From contig ML996693.1 in assembly GCA_010356995.1 (NCBI GenBank), positions 496,001-560,000 on the forward strand: a stretch of 64,000 bases of DNA, in the 5' to 3' direction. The stretch's first letter is position 1, and the number at the start of each line of letters is the position of its first letter. The DNA comes from Trichodelitschia bisporula. Taxonomy: Eukaryota. This document shows positions 51,131 through 60,100 of this stretch, piece by piece. The translations under genes were made by a program, and so were the position numbers. Below the pieces are notes generated by a model. It did no database searches and was not told the DNA's origin. It saw nothing but the letters and a program-made list of their open reading frames with translations.

Positions 51131-51779
51131 TCCACATCCGACTTCAACTATCTGCATATACCGCACACCCTACGCGTACAAGTCAGCCGCCAACCTACAT
51201 AAACGAGTGCAGCCAAAGCCGAGAACCCCCATCCACCCCATCAAGTCCAATGAAAACGACAGCCTCACCCACGAAACCTACAGCCATTCTTATCATTGTG
51301 CCCGTTCCCTTGCCCCGACTCCCTACTTCCTACACCATCCTCCACCATCCATCAGACAGCGCCAGAATGCCCTCCCTCTACTAAGCGAAGGTGTCCTCCA
51401 ACAAGTCTCAAAGCGCCCAGTAAAAGCCAGCATTTTACTAAGAATATATCGTATGCGCCCGACCATTGTGCAAAGGGTGACAGCTAGTGTAAATGCCGAA
51501 GAACAACAACCGCATGAACGAAAGAGTCCCTGTGGAATACATCGGTTATGTTACGTGCAAGAATGAGAAAGAAGCAGCACCACCCCACAAAGCTAGAAAG
51601 CACGGTGCAGCTAAGGACACAACCCCCGGAGAGACAACATACAAAAACCACTAGCTCCGCTTTTCGCCCTAGATATGAGAAAAAGTACACAAGAGTAATA
51701 TGAAAAGAGCTACGTCGAGGAATGGGAAACAAAGGCCCACCTCTTCCTCGGGTTCTCGAGGACGCTTGGTCCTCCATTA

Positions 51780-53450
51780 TTAACGCAGTCCAATGACGCT
51801 CATCTCCAGCGTCCACACCCTCCTGGCCCACACCCTCACGCGGCCGAACCCCTCCAGTTCTAACGACACCTCCGATCCCTCCCACCAGCAACGCCGCGCC
51901 GGTTTCCGCCAGAAAAGCAGAAGCTTTTGCGCCATGCCGACTGCGTTGTTCGACAAGTCGTTACCGCGGATGTCCGTGCGGAGGCGGGCAAGGGCTATGC
52001 TGCAGATAACGGCCTTGTTGGGTTCGCTGGCACGATGGCCCCACCGGTCGTCATGGTTGAACCCACTTCGGAGGTTAGATGGAGACGGATAGAAATGAGA
52101 GGGAGCATACCCAGCTGTCAGCATCTCAATCAGATGCTGTTCCGTCGATCCGGGTTCGTCACTTTTCCGCAGACCCGAGAAGATGCCGTCCTGCTTCAGC
52201 AGCGCCTGTCCTGCCGCACGCTTCACCTGCGTCATCTCAAGCTGCTCGATATCACGCCGCGGAGGAATGACATAAAAGTCGAGATCCTCGCGCAGGACAA
52301 TGATACCAGCGCGATCCTGCAGCATGTCACGTGCAGACCCTTGCATCGGCTCAATGGACACGGCTTCAGATTGCGGCTGTTGTTCGGTCGCTGTGGTCGG
52401 CGAAGGCGGCGATGCCGGTATCGTCTGCGCCACTTGGCGGAAGAAGTCGAGCATGTATTGCAGAGAATCTGGGTCATACTGGGAATGATAAGATATGTCA
52501 GATATGTATAATGAAGAGTTTGAGAGAGCAGAACGAAGGAATATCGCGGGGGCACGCAAAGAATTCTTGCGAGTGAGGGCTTTACTGACATCTACAGGGT
52601 ATACGTCGCCATCGTGGTACGACGTCATGTGGGCGTCCGGCAGCAATCCGTTCGGGAACAACGAAAGGAGTACGAATTCGGGTAGGGTGAGCAGCTCATC
52701 GCGGGAGAGTGTGAATCGTTTGCCTCTGTGAAACCGATCAGCAATTGTTGTCTTACCTAGTGAAGGGGGGGCGGGGTTGCTTACCGCAGATCAAGGGTGA
52801 TGTTTTCTTCCGAAGGGCCTGCACACACACGAAGATCAGCCTCCATATGTCGCATAGACATGCGAGCATGAGCACAGCATTCTAGTCTTACCTCCTAGGG
52901 CATTTATCGGTGGACCCCCTCCCTGCGAGACTTGAGTAATGATACTCGAAGGGCCGCCTGCTGTTGCCATGACGTATGTAAAAGACTGGATAGGACTGGA
53001 GCCCTCGCTGTACGGCGGTGGCGGTTCTCCGTCGTCGAGATCCTTACTCGACCCGTCCTTGGTATCGCGCGGAAGGGCAGCCTTGGTATCTGCGACAGCG
53101 GCGGCGACAGCAGCTGCGGCAGTGGATGATCCTTCCTGGCGAGGCGGGACAGCCGAGAACGCGGGAAGCGCTTCAGAGAATGCAGCCGAAGATGCCTCGG
53201 GTCCTGTTTTGTGCGCTTGCTGATTATCGTTGTCTGCGTCGTCAGACGGGAAGTAGAGCGAGGAAAAGGGGGGCGGGTAAGGAGAATCGGCCGTAGTAGG
53301 AGATGACGGGGCGGAGAATATGGCACGATCGAGAATATCGGCGGTTGCGTCAATGTCTAGAGGTATTCGAGGATGAAGAGGTGTTCGAGATGGTGGTGGT
53401 GGGAGAGAGGGCGCGGCTTCTCCGCTGGGTGTTTCTTGCGTGGCCGTCAA
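51780..53450 (-). CDS. WHI2: Whi2 growth/stress regulator (BTB-like, Psr phosphatase partner), 3 introns; first AUG at 52970, open non-AUG extension to TTG 53450
   Basis: SSIITQVS, ITLDLRGKRFTLSRDELLTLPEFVLLSLFPNG, IIVLREDLDFY, EQHLIEML, WGHRASEP, KLLLFWRKPARRCWW and RRVWTLEMSV match Whi2. Introns 52819-52891, 52726-52784 and 52479-52589. Confidence 0.88.
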
Positions 53451-53836
53451 TTTGATGGACGATACGCCGTTTTGACAACGGGATAAGCGCTGGTAAAGCG
53501 TCGTGATAATTGCGCAAGAGAGCGAAAGCGATGGCTGCGGTTGTCGTCGTTGCGAAGCGCGAACGCGATGAGGTGAGACGGGGGTGGGTTTGGACTGGGA
53601 ACAGAGGGATGCGGTTCTTGCGGCGGGCGGCTAGTTCTAGCTCATTTGCAACTGGTGCATGTGGATTAAGTAGGACTTGGACGAGGCGTCGTCAACATTG
53701 GGATATTGCTTCGAGACCAAAGATGCTCCGTTGGGACTTCTGGATGCTTATTGACTTTTGTGAGGGGTTGATTTTGCTGAAAGAAGTTTGGAAGTTTGTT
53801 GTGAGCTGAGGTTGCGTAGACTTGCAACTGTGCTTT

Positions 53837-53866
53837 NNNNNNNNNNNNNNNNNNNNNNNNNNNNNN
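53837..53866. other. Assembly gap (30 N)
   Basis: Run of N in the sequence. Confidence 1.
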
Positions 53867-54770
53867 GAAGCACGGGGGGGTGGGAGGGTTGCGCTTGGCC
53901 TTTGGGGAAGTGTTGGCTGTTTGGCTGTTGGATGAATTGGGGAGGCGAACTTGCATCTCCTCTGAAAATATGTCGTTGCTGTACTTTCCTGTGGGAATTG
54001 CTATAGCAACCTGCAATCACTTTCCCTCAGCCCTGCATTGCCATTGGATGAGCGACTGAGGCCCAGCCTGTGGATAAATTTAGCTCCGGACCCCGGATCC
54101 TCTCTTGCTGCCTCGTTGCCTTGAGATCCTGACATTCTTGATGTTGGGTCTCATATATGACGAGGTTCGCCACTTGGTCGACTTCTGTTCTGTAAGGCCC
54201 ACATCAACAGGAGGTTCAGCCATGGCTCATCTATACGAGTAAGGTCGCTCTTCCAAATTATGGGCAATTTATCCCTCCCCCAATCTTCAAGAATAACGCT
54301 TCTAACTGTAAAAACGCGCGGCATATGCATTATATATCAGGCCGTGGGTCGTGTAGCAGCTAACGACCAGTTTGGACTACAGCACAATCATACTTACTCT
54401 GGATCGATACACTCGCAACAACCCTCACTCGCAGACATCAGTGTGGAATGAGCCTGGAGGAGTATCGCTGTTCCATCTGTATCCTTGGGAGGATTCACCA
54501 AGCACAGGAATAGTACATATGATTGTTCAGTCCCGCTCTTCGGTTGAATTTCCAGGTCATGTCTTAGAGTGTATATCTTCCTTCCAAGTCCGTCCGGTCT
54601 TCCAGAGGTCAGCAGCAAGTCTTAGCACCTTGCCAGCTGTCATCGCAGAGAAACAAGCAAGCCGTTAGAATTGTACAACCGGTGTACATCACTCGTAACA
54701 CAGCCCATGGAAATGATCTAGATCTCTTTAGACCCCTTTTGTTTTCCGTCTACATGCACCATGCAGTTCT

Positions 54771-57124
54771 TTAATGCTTCGCCACCACACCCGCCGCATC
54801 CGCCTGCGCCGTAATCCTTTTCTTATAATCCGTAACCGTCCCACCAAAATGCTCAATCGTCCCATGATCACACACCCACAAGCTCGTACATACATTCTGC
54901 AGCATCGTAACATCATGACTAACCATGAGCACACCCCCCTGAAACCTCTGCAGCGCCTCAGACAGCGCATCCATCGCCTCGATATCAAGATGATTCGACG
55001 GCTCGTCCAGCACCAGGATATGAGGATTCGTCAACGAGAGGCAAGCAAATGCAACACGACTCTTCTGCCCACCGGACAGAAGCTCCATCTTCTGCAGACC
55101 CGTCATACCCGTGATACCGAAAGCCCCCAAGTGCCGCCGGTACTCCTCGTCCGTGCGGCCCGGGAACTTCTCCGTCATGAACCCCACCGCGCTCTTGTTG
55201 AGATCCAGTCCGTCGACGTGGTGCTGTGCGAAGAAGCCGACTCTCAGCCGCGGGTTCTGCGATATCAGGCCGGAGGTCGGTTGTAGCGCGCCGATGAGCA
55301 GTTTCAGTGCTGTGGTTTTACCCGCGCCGTTGGGGCCGACGATGCCGATACGTGAATCGAGCTGCACATCCAGATCGACGTTCTTGAGCAGGATGTTGCC
55401 GGGAGTGTAGCCGAAGGTGACATTTGTCATCTGGATGATGGGCGGAGAAAGCTTCTCCACCTCCGGGAACTTGAAGTGCACACTGTATTCGGCCTCTGGA
55501 GCTTCGAGCACGGGCATGCGTTCCAGCTTTTTGATACGCGATTGCGCTTCTGAGGATTTGGCGGCGTTGTAGCGGAACTTGTCGATGAAGGCTTGGAGAT
55601 GCGCACGCACCGCCATCTGGTTCTCGTACTCCTTCTTCGCAGTCTTACGCCGCTCCTCCTTGGTCGCGTAGAAGGAGTCAAAGTTGCCACCCTTGTAGTA
55701 GTCCAGCCGCTCCGAGTGCTGGTGGATGATATCTGTCGCGACTTCATTGAGGAAGGCTCGGTCGTGAGAGACGACGAGCACCGTGCTTGGGTAGCCTTGG
55801 AGGTAGTTTGAGAGGAAGGTAATGGAGGGGACGTCCAACATGTTAGACGGTTCATCGAGCAGCAGCAGATCAGGCTCGCAGAACAGCGCTCGCGCAAGCG
55901 CCAGTCTCATCCGCCAACCACCGGAGAAGGTCTTGGTGGCAAACTGCTGGCGTTCGGGCGAAAATCCCAGACCTGCGAGAATGCTGGCCGCACGGGATTC
56001 AGCCTTGTCGGACTCCATCTCGGCCAACTTGGCGTGGATGTCGCTGAGGGTGATATCGAGACCCTCGCGTTGCTTGTCGAGACGGGCAGCATCGGCGGAG
56101 GTGTCGGCCATAGAGGCCCGCTGGCTTTCGATCTCTGCCAGCTCCCTCGAGATTTTCTACATCCGTTAGGAAGTGCTCATCGGTGAGAAGCATATCACTT
56201 ACGTCTTGCTCCCGAAGGAGATGTTTCCGCCAGACATCCGCATCGAGAACGGCCTGTATCGCCGGCGTGTCGTCTCCAGTAATCTAAGCCACATGAGCAC
56301 ATGGTAAAAAAGAGGGATATACAGAATTCTACCTCTTGCTCGACATGGAGAATGGATATGTGGGTAGGAATGGGGATTTCTCTCCGACTGAGCGCCCTGA
56401 GCAGAGTGGATTTACCGATACCGTTCTGACCGACCAGACCGTATCTATGACCATATGCCAGAGTGAGGGTGGTATCACTGAGGATTCTCTTTCCTCCAAT
56501 CGACACATCAATCCCATCAACTTTGATATCCTTGCTCTTGTTCGACACATCCGAGCCAAGCTGCAAAGGATTCACAGCCATATAAAACTCCTCATACGAC
56601 TGCGCCTCATCGGTCTGATTGAGCAAGCGGGAAGCCTCGTACTCGACATTCTTCATCGTCTTCCGCTCCTGCTTTGCACGGATCTTGCGCTCCGCCTTTT
56701 CGAGCTTCTTACGGTCAACCCGCGACTCCACCCGCCGGCCCGCCGCAGCCTCTACATCGACACTGCCGGTCGCAAGCGCCATCGTCGACGAGATATTCCG
56801 CTGCGACCCAACATGGATCGTCTGATCCAACTTCCGCGCCGCCATCTGGTGTATCTCGCCATCGGCCGCCGCCGCCGCCGCAGCGCCCAACCGCTCCACA
56901 AACCGGCCGACGAGGTTCCGGATAGCAACCTCGTTTTGAGGCGAGAAGTCGCCGGAAGCGGAGAGCAGCAGGGCGGCTACGGCATCGGCGGCCTCATTGA
57001 GCGGGGAGTCGGCGTCGCCGTCAGATGATGAGGCGCTGTGCGCGGCATGGTTTAGATACCCAACCGAGTAGTCTGCTACGACCTGGTCAATCTGGGGGAT
57101 TTGGGATCTAATCTCGGTGTCCAT
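54771..57124 (-). CDS. GCN20: ABC-F translation regulator Gcn20 / ABCF3, 2 introns
   Basis: Two ATPase domains (GQNGIGKST, FSGGWRMRL, LLDEPSN; GPNGAGKT, LSGGQKSRV), no TM domain, and the Gcn20-type N-terminus RVDRKKLEKAERK..YEEFYMAVNPL. Introns 56285-56332 and 56157-56202. Confidence 0.93.
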
Positions 57125-60100
57125 GGCTTTATTGAGGTGAGTAGCGCGGGGGAGGGGCTGCGCGGGGCTGAGGTCTGAAGTCGGGGTCGGATTTTTTCGT
57201 TGCGTGGCGGGAGGGGCGGGGTCCCGGAGGTGAGGCGTTTGTGTGGGGAGGGTGTGGGTGGGTGGTTGTTAGCGTGCAGGTGGAAGGAGCGGCTTTGAGA
57301 TATTCGGTGGCGTCACACTTTCCCGACCCCAACCCTCATGTCTTGCCCCTCTCCAAACCGCTTCCGAGAGATCTGCTCTGCAACGAGGTGAATTCGGGTT
57401 GAAGACGAGACGAGACGGCAAACACGAGGAGCTTTTTTCACGGGGGAAGGCGGGGGAGGATGCGGTCTGGGCTCGGACAGGGACTGGCCGCAGCAGGAGG
57501 AGCAGCAGCAGCAGCAGCAAGCAACAAAGTCACAGGCGACAGGGACGAGGGACGAAGGGTGAACACGAATGTTGCAAGTGCCCCCCGGCCCAGCTAGAGG
57601 CCGCGATGGCGGTTGGTGCGGAATGCGAAGTGGGGAGCATAGAGTGCGGGAAAGCCAACAGGCAACGAAACAGGTGATGACCGATCGCGCTGGGGCCCCT
57701 CTCTCTTAGTTCTCACTGGCATCAGCTCGTGGAAAGGAACTGTTGGGATCTTACGGAATGTCCTAATGGCATCAGAGGTGAGTACGATAGGCGAGCAAAT
57801 CAGCTGCACAGCACAGAAGGCCAATATTCGATGCTTAGGGCAGCGCATATATATAAGACCAACGGATATGGCTGACCTTGGAACGTCTGCAATAAGAACG
57901 CCACTTAAGAGGCCGCTTTCTCCTGCTATTGCTCAACTTCTGAATGAGCGGTTACGACGTCGCTTGGCTGCGCATGATGGCGAAATGGCCGGCCTTGGAC
58001 CTGACGGCTATGCGGCGAGCCCCGCGGGACCTGCGCAAGTCGGCGTGGGAGGAAGGCATGTCGTCCTGTTGCCTCATCGCTCTTTACCGGGGCTGTCCTT
58101 GTGTTTCAAAGTATGCGACCTGACCGTCTGACTGTCCGTTTTGACGCCGCTTACGGAGTACTCTCTAGATAGGGTGCGGAGAACTGCGGAGAAGGATGGA
58201 CGGCGTAGCGACGGCGGGAAGGGGCGGCGTAAGAGGAGCGGGAGACGGCTCATCTGTGCCTGCAGATGGGTGTGCTCATGATATGACAGGAAGACGGGAA
58301 GCGATGCCGTGGTTGACGAGCAGACGCTCATGGTGTGTTGTGTCATGGCTGTGTTCCCCGCATCGCCGAGCGAAGGTGGCTGGAAGGAAGGGACGAGGTG
58401 GGCCCTCCCCGGGTCACGACGGTTGACAGTGAGGTGATTCCAACTGACGATGTTCGCCGTACATACAGATTGGTACCTCCATTGGCCGTACTACGTACTT
58501 TGATGGGGTTCACTGGGGGGGAAATCTGGGAGCGCATCGGAGCCTATTAGGTGTCGTCGCACTGTAGTGGCCTGGGACCTGCAGCGGAACACCGCATAAG
58601 TAAGGTGCGTTTCTCTGGGACATATGCGTTGACTTGGTACGGATATATGCGTTTGGTGAAGCGACGCCTTCACTGTGGCCCGTTGTGCCCATTGCGTTTG
58701 GTGAGAGAGTGTCTCTTTGTTGAGAAGGAGAGAGTTAATTTGGAGAGCGGTATGAACTCCGTCGTCCATGGGGGCCGTGAGCACCACGACATGGGACCCG
58801 AAGGACGAATGGGAGACGTAGAATGCAGCCTTTTTTCCTCTTCAATCACGGAACGGGAGAGTGCTTCTAGAAGACGTCGGGATGGGAAATTCGGGCCTGT
58901 GTGTTTCGGAGAGGCTTTTTCGGCGTTGAGCCATCTCATCTCCCGAAGTGCCTCGCGGCGGAACCCGCGACAAATGATGAGACGCGTCGCGTTGACCATC
59001 TTGAGCCTTGCGATCTCCGTTCATGATACCACTCTCCACATCGCTCAGCCGGAGTACTCCGGTCAAGCTTTCTCGCATCCCATGGTACATTGGTCTATTC
59101 TCGGATAGGTACTTTCAATGAACCGACGGACAACTTCCTCTTGAACCAAGTTCCAACAGCGTTGAGTGCATGCTAATAACATAAACAAGCGCGCCAACGC
59201 CACTCTCTTCTCCACACCCGACCCCTGCGACGTTGACGTGTGCCTTGTCTGACTGGCTCGAAAGAAGTCATCGCCGCGTCGCACCCAGCGCCTAGTCGCG
59301 CGCCGTTGCGAGGGCTGGAAGGAAGTCGTCCCTGTTTTGGCCTGCCCGTTCAAGCGTGGCAAGCAGATGATGAGCTTCAGGGGCCTTGGTTCATGGCATG
59401 GGAGTAAGGTGAGCAAGTAGTTGAGGATGACGATAAGGCCGAGAGCTAGTGAATTAACTTATGTTCACGCCCTAGGGCCGGAGTAGAGGTTGGTGACGGT
59501 GCACTGCTGCTGGTCGCCCCGGCGCCTGCTGCGACTTTGCGCGACTGCGGGAAGACGGGATATTGTTTGCTGGAGAGAGAGCAAAGACTTCGCAGCGATG
59601 ATGGCCCTGCCGAGCTCCAATTACGCCCGTGGATGCTGTGATGCTCTTCAGCTCCGTGCTGACGGCAAATGCCCGCTTCAACAGCTTGGACCTCACTGCG
59701 GTACTGCCTCCAACGCCTTGCAGCGACCTCCCTCACTCCTCTCATTGCTCCCAAGAAGCCTTTCAACCTCTCATCCCGCAGCACTCCTCATCAACCCACC
59801 ACTCACGTACCCCCCACACCCCGCTTGCAAGCCCACATCCTTGGGAAGCCTTTGACGCCTGAAAGGAAGCGGCTGGCTGGCCTGGCCGCCTGGGCGGGAG
59901 AATCTGACGCCGGCGACATGAAGCCGAGTGGAGCCAAAAGGGCAATCGAACGCCTGCCTTGGGGCCGGCGGGCCAGTAAGAAGACCGGTAGTGCCGGGGG
60001 TCTTGACGCGTGCCTCCGCGTTCGCGTGTTGCCGATGGACACGATTTGGAGATTTGGTGGGGCCCGCGTGGGTCCCCGGCAGCCAAAGCGCGCGGCGGCG

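Follow-up and report, generated by a model that had tools for sequence, protein, structure and literature searches.

A conserved N-terminal extension of Whi2 in filamentous ascomycetes, very probably translated from a non-AUG start codon

The WHI2 locus of Trichodelitschia bisporula

We analyzed a window of 64,000 nt from Trichodelitschia bisporula (assembly GCA_010356995.1, contig ML996693.1, positions 496,001 to 560,000 of the forward strand; all coordinates below are those of the window). On its minus strand lies WHI2, which, judged by sequence and RNA, very probably makes, from a UUG codon, a second protein 160 residues longer than the annotated type. The Whi2 core coding region (51780..52970) runs from an ATG at 52968..52970, hereafter the internal ATG, to a TAA at 51782-51780. 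It comprises five exons (52970-52892, 52818-52785, 52725-52590, 52478-52111 and 52065-51780, the last including the stop) and four GT..AG introns, supported by both the sequence and transcript contigs. The core aligns over its full length with 19 relatives, and relatives bear the source names 'General stress response protein Whi2' or 'WHI2-like protein P4H10.16c', placing the gene in the Whi2 family. Translation from the internal ATG, the annotated-type start of a 300-residue short form, begins MATAGGPSSIITQVS, which would correspond to the yeast Whi2 N-terminus MDDIITQVS.

Above the internal ATG the WHI2 frame stays open for 220 codons (53630 through 52970), up to an in-frame TAG at 53631..53633. 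The initial annotation of this stretch had reported that open frame, the absence of any minus-strand ATG from 52971 to 53642, and a TTG at 53450-53448 behind a fungal-type start context, and each of these is borne out by the letters. The next ATG upstream is at 53645, and everything between it and 52970 is free of ATG in all frames. The TTG (53448..53450) is preceded by TCCATCAAA (53451..53459), with A at -3 and C at -4, and the extension peptides quoted in that annotation are present. The extension itself, codons 2-160 of the predicted long form, occupies 52971..53447. Joined through the core exons, the coding sequence from the TTG is 1383 nt long with a single, terminal stop; the predicted products are 460 residues (49.8 kDa) from the TTG and 300 residues (33.4 kDa) from the ATG.

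How surprising such a stretch is depends on its composition. The 672 nt are 59% G+C and 39% C, and because of this ATG and stop codons are rare there anyway. In 2000 dinucleotide-preserving shuffles the mean was 3.4 ATGs, so the figure of about ten given at first was roughly threefold too high. Among the shuffles 24 were ATG-free, 17 were stop-free in the WHI2 frame, and 2 were both; in the real stretch the other two frames hold 2 and 5 stops. The window by itself, at about 1 in 1000, is unlikely by chance and suggestive, yet no proof of translation. We regard the comparative ATG counts given below as decisive that the absence is beyond chance.

A spliced transcript spans the extension

Contigs from two runs of one sample, X1 and X2, neither recorded as RNA, were compared with the window. 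Since contigs from both skip precisely the four predicted GT..AG introns, they derive from RNA. A single spliced transcript contig (X1 record 1, 2429 nt) matches the window at 51300..53836 on the minus strand with no differences, ending in a homopolymer at a run of Ns. It is unspliced from 52891 to 53836, 386 nt beyond the TTG, so the mature mRNA has the whole extension plus at least 386 nt above the TTG. There is no interruption within the extension and, up to 53836, no upstream spliced exon supplying an in-frame AUG. The RNA letters are identical to those of the window, which speaks against a sequencing error at the TTG. The initial annotation had also depended on transcription starting upstream of the extension; in this the RNA agrees, reaching above the TTG to 53836, and the true 5' end lies beyond what contigs can give.

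The extension is conserved as protein

Relatives of the extension are numerous. A HMMER scan of 1.84 billion representative proteins returned 188 at E<=1e-3, of which 165 were at E<=1e-10. A word-indexed search among longer proteins gave 126 relatives, and a search seeded by a Sordariomycete-type relative gave 639 matches. By named source, the extension is carried in Dothideomycetes, Eurotiomycetes, Lecanoromycetes and other lichen-formers, Sordariomycetes and Leotiomycetes, with relatives in Sordariales, Xylariales, Hypocreales and Helotiales having it. Several of the listed full-length relatives are intron-free proteins of 417-525 aa on 1.6-3.4-kb contigs and include the extension. An alignment of all 253 upstream parts was unreadable owing to fused gene models, and a motif-anchored analysis was used instead, together with a 26-sequence protein alignment (A1) whose numbering, P119 to G226, is used here.

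Three motifs of the window stand out in A1, all on the minus strand. In SPYPPPFSSLYFP (53247..53285), P119 and P120 are invariant or nearly so and F122 and S123 nearly invariant; in ADTKAALPRDTK (53058..53093), K183, A185, L186, P187, D189 and K191 are at least 90% conserved. The third is the PPPPY motif (53010..53024; a PPxY motif) to which the initial annotation had drawn attention, within DLDDGEPPPPYSEGSSP: P203, P204, P205, Y207, E209, G210, S212 and P213 are invariant, and PPP[P/A]Y is found in all 26 sequences. The PPPAY variant belongs to Sordariomycete-type sequences, which also have a second PPxY, SPPPQYP. The conserved blocks are SPYPPPFSSLYFP, PAF..PP, (A/V)(D/E)TKAALPRDTK, DDGEPPPPY(S/T)EGSSP and SFTYVMAxAGGxxSIITQV. 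The last contains the internal Met, M221, which is invariant in A1, with F217, Y219, A222, A224, G225 and G226 invariant or nearly so.

In the window, Ala and Pro each make up 16% of the extension, Ser 14% and Asp 9%, and Met, Cys and Trp are absent. At E<=0.01 no Pfam family was found for the extension or the core exons; for Neurospora crassa WHI-2, a BTB/POZ domain is reported by InterProScan (PMC6987382). A structure model of a full-length relative, made from a 19-row alignment, had a mean predicted local distance difference test score of 39 and a predicted template modeling score of 0.24, too weak to interpret; in this low-confidence model residues 1-174 lack predicted secondary structure. 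The extension is probably a disordered arm rich in Pro, Ser and Ala.

Nucleotide comparisons place the edge of the coding signature at the proposed start, written below as NTG for TTG, GTG or CTG. Across 56 locus pairs with 70-97% extension identity, substitutions at codon positions 1/2/3 numbered 942/640/2626 below the NTG, and 1490/1553/1478 in the 240 nt above it. All 74 internal gaps below the NTG were multiples of three, as against 51 of 223 above, and mean identity was 0.83 below versus 0.64 above. Binned at 30 nt for 65 pairs, the share of third-position substitutions was 0.32, 0.32, 0.35, 0.33 and 0.26 above the NTG and 0.55, 0.47, 0.46, 0.48, 0.59 and 0.72 below it, with identity climbing from 0.77 to 0.88 at the NTG itself. 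The ratio of nonsynonymous to synonymous substitution rates (dN/dS, Nei-Gojobori) had a median of 0.24 in the 256 usable of 400 random pairs, with 254 below 0.5 and none reaching 1; the ratio is rough, as dS is saturated (median 1.87) and a protein-guided alignment favors low dN. Taken together, positions, gaps and identity show strong coding conservation that starts at the NTG, and by these comparisons of sequence the extension evolves as coding sequence from the NTG onward.

The start codon across orthologous loci

Orthologous DNA was taken from a metagenome contig scan covering the best 80 of 198 relatives, making 81 loci with the window. The frame above the internal ATG is open in all 81, for 67-296 codons; no locus has an in-frame ATG in it, and the internal ATG is kept in every one. 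At the 5' edge a peptide motif, x-(T/K/N/A)-L-(S/T)-x-x-(Q/R)...(D/G)G.S, aligns with K-L-T-A-T-Q-E of the window, and one Mycosphaerellales-like clade has T-V-DSD-(G/T)-SSVHTTPSLRG in its place. Assignment by motif alone gave TTG in 48, GTG in 16, CTG in 2, CTT in 2 and TTA in 1 of 69 loci, with 12 loci unassigned; nine contigs are truncated at the 5' end. On re-inspection L062 was reassigned, the wrong motif copy having been taken first, and the right copy is TTG. The final set comprises 71 assigned loci, 60 of them distinct, with TTG in 43, GTG in 14, CTG in 3 and ATG in none, counts that do not represent independent events because the loci are related to each other. TTG, GTG or CTG thus stands at the site in 60 of 60 distinct assigned loci, and no orthologue has an ATG there.

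Codon usage does not account for this, since these codons are rare within the extension: of the 490 Leu codons in the 60 loci 9.2% are TTG and 4.9% (24) are CTG, and of the 339 Val codons 9.1% are GTG. The context is equally uniform, with a purine at -3 in 60 of 60 (A 49, G 11), C at -4 in 51, C or A at -2 (44 and 13), C at -7 in 49, C at -8 in 50 and A at -9 in 43. The start optimum of filamentous fungi is CAMM, which the NTG context would match. UUG reportedly ranked below CUG in a study of start-codon efficiency in N. crassa.

Two further observations bear on the position. Many loci have an in-frame stop just 2-8 codons upstream of the NTG, as in L052 and L053, which read TAA CCC GAC TTG, leaving no space for another start or a splice acceptor. 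One database protein, the intron-free P0047 (442 aa), has its initial 'M' placed exactly on the TTG of L016, L037 and L041, so an initial 'M' in such database proteins need not mean ATG.

As a separate observation, in-frame near-cognate NTG codons account for 14% of the extension's Leu codons and 9% of its Val codons. Such low use might mean that extra starts are avoided along the scanning track.

Two proteins from one mRNA

Between the NTG and the internal ATG, the 60 distinct loci hold 26,220 nt and 1 ATG, where a first-order Markov expectation is 96.1. Other words in this stretch are near expectation, and CAT, the reverse complement, occurs 341 times against 282 expected. For the flanks, observed over expected ATG is 360/422 (0.85) across the 500 nt upstream of the NTG and 577/455 (1.27) across the 500 nt downstream of the internal ATG. 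ATG in any frame of the open stretch occurs in 11 of 81 loci, in ten of them at least 520 nt above the internal ATG and so above the proposed start. No Met is found among about 8,700 extension codons; 12 full-length relatives (12 of the 19 rows) have 8-10 Met in the 300-aa core but an extension without any. The internal AUG itself has a good context in the 60 loci, with a purine at -3 in 56 (G 49, A 7, C in the other 4) and G at +4 in 59.

Loss of ATG from all three frames fits leaky scanning, because ribosomes must cross this track to reach the second start, and translation from the NTG only would give no reason to avoid Met or out-of-frame ATG. The initial annotation had suggested that leaky scanning makes two isoforms, and the near-total loss of ATG supports this indirectly. 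We consider it likely that one WHI2 mRNA gives two proteins, a UUG-started form of 460 aa and an AUG-started form of 300 aa. Scanning ribosomes would meet the UUG at 53450 first, in the best fungal context (C at -4, A at -3), and a minority would start there, producing the 49.8-kDa Whi2 with its Pro-rich, PPxY-bearing arm. Those that pass would scan 480 nt kept free of AUG by selection in all frames and then start at the AUG at 52970, producing the 33.4-kDa annotated-type Whi2. Both forms would be expected to accumulate.

One alternative is that only the long form matters, the NTG being the sole functional start and the internal Met a conserved residue of FTYVMAxAGG. The Met does lie inside a strongly conserved peptide, so that protein function alone could retain it, and the extension is under purifying selection. 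We nevertheless consider this unlikely. It leaves unexplained the 1 ATG against 96 expected across all three frames, the Met-free extension codons, and why none of 60 distinct lineages has changed its NTG to ATG. It also does not fit the +4 G retained at the internal AUG in 59 of 60 loci, or the published Whi2 sizes, which match the short form (297 aa for N. crassa WHI-2 as given in PMC6987382).

A second alternative, slightly less probable again, replaces leaky scanning with two transcription starts, a long mRNA encoding the long form and a shorter one, begun inside the extension, encoding the short form. Contigs cannot reveal 5' ends, and alternative starts are common in fungi. The depletion of ATG, however, spans the entire stretch from NTG to AUG and not just the vicinity of the AUG. 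The ten loci that have their ATG at least 520 nt above the AUG have it where leaky scanning from the NTG requires, and the contig runs through the extension without a break. An internal transcription start could still add to the short form.

Splicing of an AUG-bearing upstream exon into the frame, which would give a normal AUG start, is very improbable. Gene models that link the extension with upstream exons are common (60 of 120 listed relatives with an ABC-F gene, 18 with other long upstream parts), but the transcript contig is unspliced to 53836 and the ABC-F contig ends separately, at 54516 or 54383. Periodicity begins at the NTG and not at a splice acceptor, with L052 and L053 having only TAA CCC GAC, and no AG, before the TTG. 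The fused partner also differs by lineage (ABC-F, peptidase M49, a G-patch protein), as predictor artefacts would. An untranslated conserved leader, or a TTG that is a sequencing error for ATG, has nothing in its favor beyond the lack of direct protein evidence and can be set aside given the third-position excess, the 74 of 74 gaps in threes, RNA contigs that match the window without differences, and NTG in 60 of 60 distinct loci with ATG in none.

Several points weigh against the reading of two proteins from one mRNA. The contigs carry no information on where transcription starts, and the leader beyond 53836 is masked by the homopolymer and N-run. Three upstream AUGs lie in the leader (53698, 53660 and 53645), so access to the UUG needs leaky scanning or reinitiation. 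No stable hairpin was found 3' of the UUG in the window (minimum free energy -21.6 against a shuffle mean of -21.9 kcal/mol, z = 0.11). Among the loci, L004, L008, L034 and L067 were placed by seeking an NTG with a purine at -3, which is circular for them, and in L034 an ATG out of frame lies 200 nt upstream of the internal AUG. L006 is an exception, with CTT at the position and only an ACG nearby, directly after the upstream stop; it may represent a lineage with a moved or lost start, or an assembly error. Some NCBI models, known as protein models only, begin with M inside or just above the extension (for example those of Cercospora berteroae, C. beticola and Periconia digitata). Finally, the long form remains a predicted translation product, its support coming from sequence and RNA.

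Possible function and comparison with known systems

PPxY motifs bind the WW domains of Rsp5/Nedd4-type ligases, and the long form may through its PPxY recruit, or be marked by, an Rsp5/HulA ligase. Known PY partners of Rsp5/Nedd4, such as the arrestin-related adaptors, Bul1/2 and Bsd2, likewise have one or two PPxY motifs in a low-complexity region. The Whi2 extension differs from them in having no arrestin or other adaptor fold and no Pfam family, and its WW binding is predicted. Papers listed as naming both Whi2 and Rsp5 have, by their titles, other subjects.

Whi2 and its phosphatase partner Psr1/CSP-6 are described as restraining TORC1 under amino-acid scarcity, and in filamentous fungi Whi2 is described as controlling cell fusion, conidiation, clock output and appressorium formation (PMC6987382, PMC5800702, PMC8295519). 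In yeast, amino-acid limitation is reported to increase near-cognate initiation (PMC5487733). We speculate that the isoform ratio responds to start-codon stringency or amino-acid supply. A wider proposal, which is possible but doubtful, is that Whi2 acts as a translational sensor in filamentous ascomycetes. Acceptance of the UUG, set by the eIF1/eIF5 balance, amino-acid limitation and reinitiation after the leader's upstream open reading frames (uORFs), would fix the ratio of a PY-bearing long form that recruits Rsp5/HulA to a short form unable to do so, and with it the suppression of TORC1 and cell-communication signaling.

The closest precedent is N. crassa cpc-1, the GCN4 homologue (Ivanov et al., 2017; PMC5487733). 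As described there, cpc-1 is likewise a Pezizomycotina gene with an in-frame extension lacking stop and AUG. The two genes are alike in their near-cognate codons, which are conserved in good context, and in their long, uORF-bearing leaders, and both belong to the amino-acid-limitation response. In the same account, cpc-1 has several near-cognates (ACG, AUU, CUG) interleaved with two regulatory uORFs, whereas in WHI2 a single NTG is conserved, about 480 nt without AUG in any frame come after it, and the extension has PPxY motifs.

In human, KCTD11L is described as a Whi2-like BTB protein with an AUU-initiated 39-residue extension above the annotated AUG (PMC6566181). On that description KCTD11L and fungal Whi2 are both Whi2-related TORC1 suppressors, with a non-AUG N-terminus long absent from databases. 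The KCTD11 extension, however, is said there to complete the BTB domain. The fungal extension, compared by description, is 110-200 aa long with UUG, GUG or CUG as its start; it looks disordered and falls outside the putative BTB core. The sensor logic, should it hold, may have arisen independently in KCTD11.

Within the fungal family itself, N. crassa WHI-2 (NCU10518), given as 297 aa (PMC6987382), is close in length to the 300-aa short form of the window. Both it and Magnaporthe oryzae MoWhi2 (MGG_11241; PMC8295519) are described without an extension in the portions of these papers that were available. The annotated short Whi2 of filamentous fungi starts at the same conserved Met as the short form here. 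The text of the CSP-6 pull-down paper (PMC5800702) gives no mass for the WHI-2 band.

A search of the literature for Whi2 with non-AUG or near-cognate starts found only the KCTD review (PMC6566181) and no report of a fungal WHI2 extension; the main texts of PMC5487733 and PMC7049704 do not name Whi2. Conserved non-AUG N-terminal extensions are a known kind, as in cpc-1 and KCTD11L, and the WHI2 case is new to the literature searched. The extension is kept across many molds and has been overlooked or mis-modeled in annotation. Studies of fungal Whi2 use the ~300-aa protein. If the 460-aa form is real, one third of the protein has been overlooked, including the most conserved Pro-rich motifs and a putative ubiquitin-ligase docking motif, and AUG-started constructs would express just one of two forms. 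With one codon, one context and a 480-nt AUG-free track, WHI2 offers a natural test bed for near-cognate initiation.

The leader, the introns and the upstream neighbor

Two uORFs lie within the transcript contig on the minus strand. The first (53666..53698) has its AUG at 53698 and 10 codons plus a stop; the second (53637..53660) has its AUG at 53660, 7 codons plus a stop, and a nested AUG at 53645. They sit 186-248 nt above the TTG, and none occurs within 170 nt. A short uORF of 2-13 codons, often starting ATG CGC, is found about 96-138 nt above the NTG in many Pleosporales-like loci and aligns among them; in L011, L013-L017, L019, L023, L031, L037, L057 and L001 it lies about 105-130 nt above, and L026 and L039 have a similar one. 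We do not regard it as a conserved element, since no alignment extends across classes and the window lacks a counterpart within 170 nt. ATG is also mildly depleted over the 100 nt immediately upstream of the NTG (31 against 71 expected, 0.44). Farther up, 30 Ns fill 53837-53866 of the window, and at this place both RNA contigs break off in a loose plus-strand stretch of 17-25 G. The Ns therefore probably hide a homopolymer, poly-C in the WHI2 leader. No contig covers 53874-54107.

Introns 3 (52479-52589, 111 nt) and 4 (52066-52110, 45 nt) of the core are multiples of three and free of in-frame stops, and the window RNA contigs remove both. Intron 3 is kept as coding in several NCBI models of other species (P0005, P0033, P0042 and P0043), giving an insert that ends ...LYLSD.Y.SQ, and the conserved 'peptide' overlaps the apparent branch-site (CTGAC) and acceptor (CAG) signals.

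Directly upstream of WHI2, an ABC-F (GCN20/ABCF3-like) gene occupies 54771-57268 on the minus strand, and this neighborhood is common to many Dothideomycetes. The two genes have separate transcript contigs, that of ABC-F ending at 54516 (X1) or 54383 (X2). Among 120 listed relatives, 60 gene models are fused to ABC-F, 18 have other long upstream parts (peptidase M49 and a G-patch protein among the partners), 5 have no Met at the N-terminus and 37 stand alone. Several models from Sordariales, Xylariales, Hypocreales and Helotiales are labeled 'partial'. The fusions and missing Met would follow from predictors detecting coding potential but no ATG, and where the ABC-F gene adjoins, the outcome is a chimeric 'P-loop NTPase' of about 1225 aa. 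That partners vary by lineage is as expected of predictor artefacts. A gene-prediction rule allowing a conserved NTG start would mend fused or partial WHI2 models. At the 3' end of the ABC-F transcript (54238-54383), one X2 contig has a 144-nt skip with GT..AG on the plus strand. This runs opposite to both genes, with only 30 nt on its short side, and either antisense transcription or chimeric assembly could account for it.

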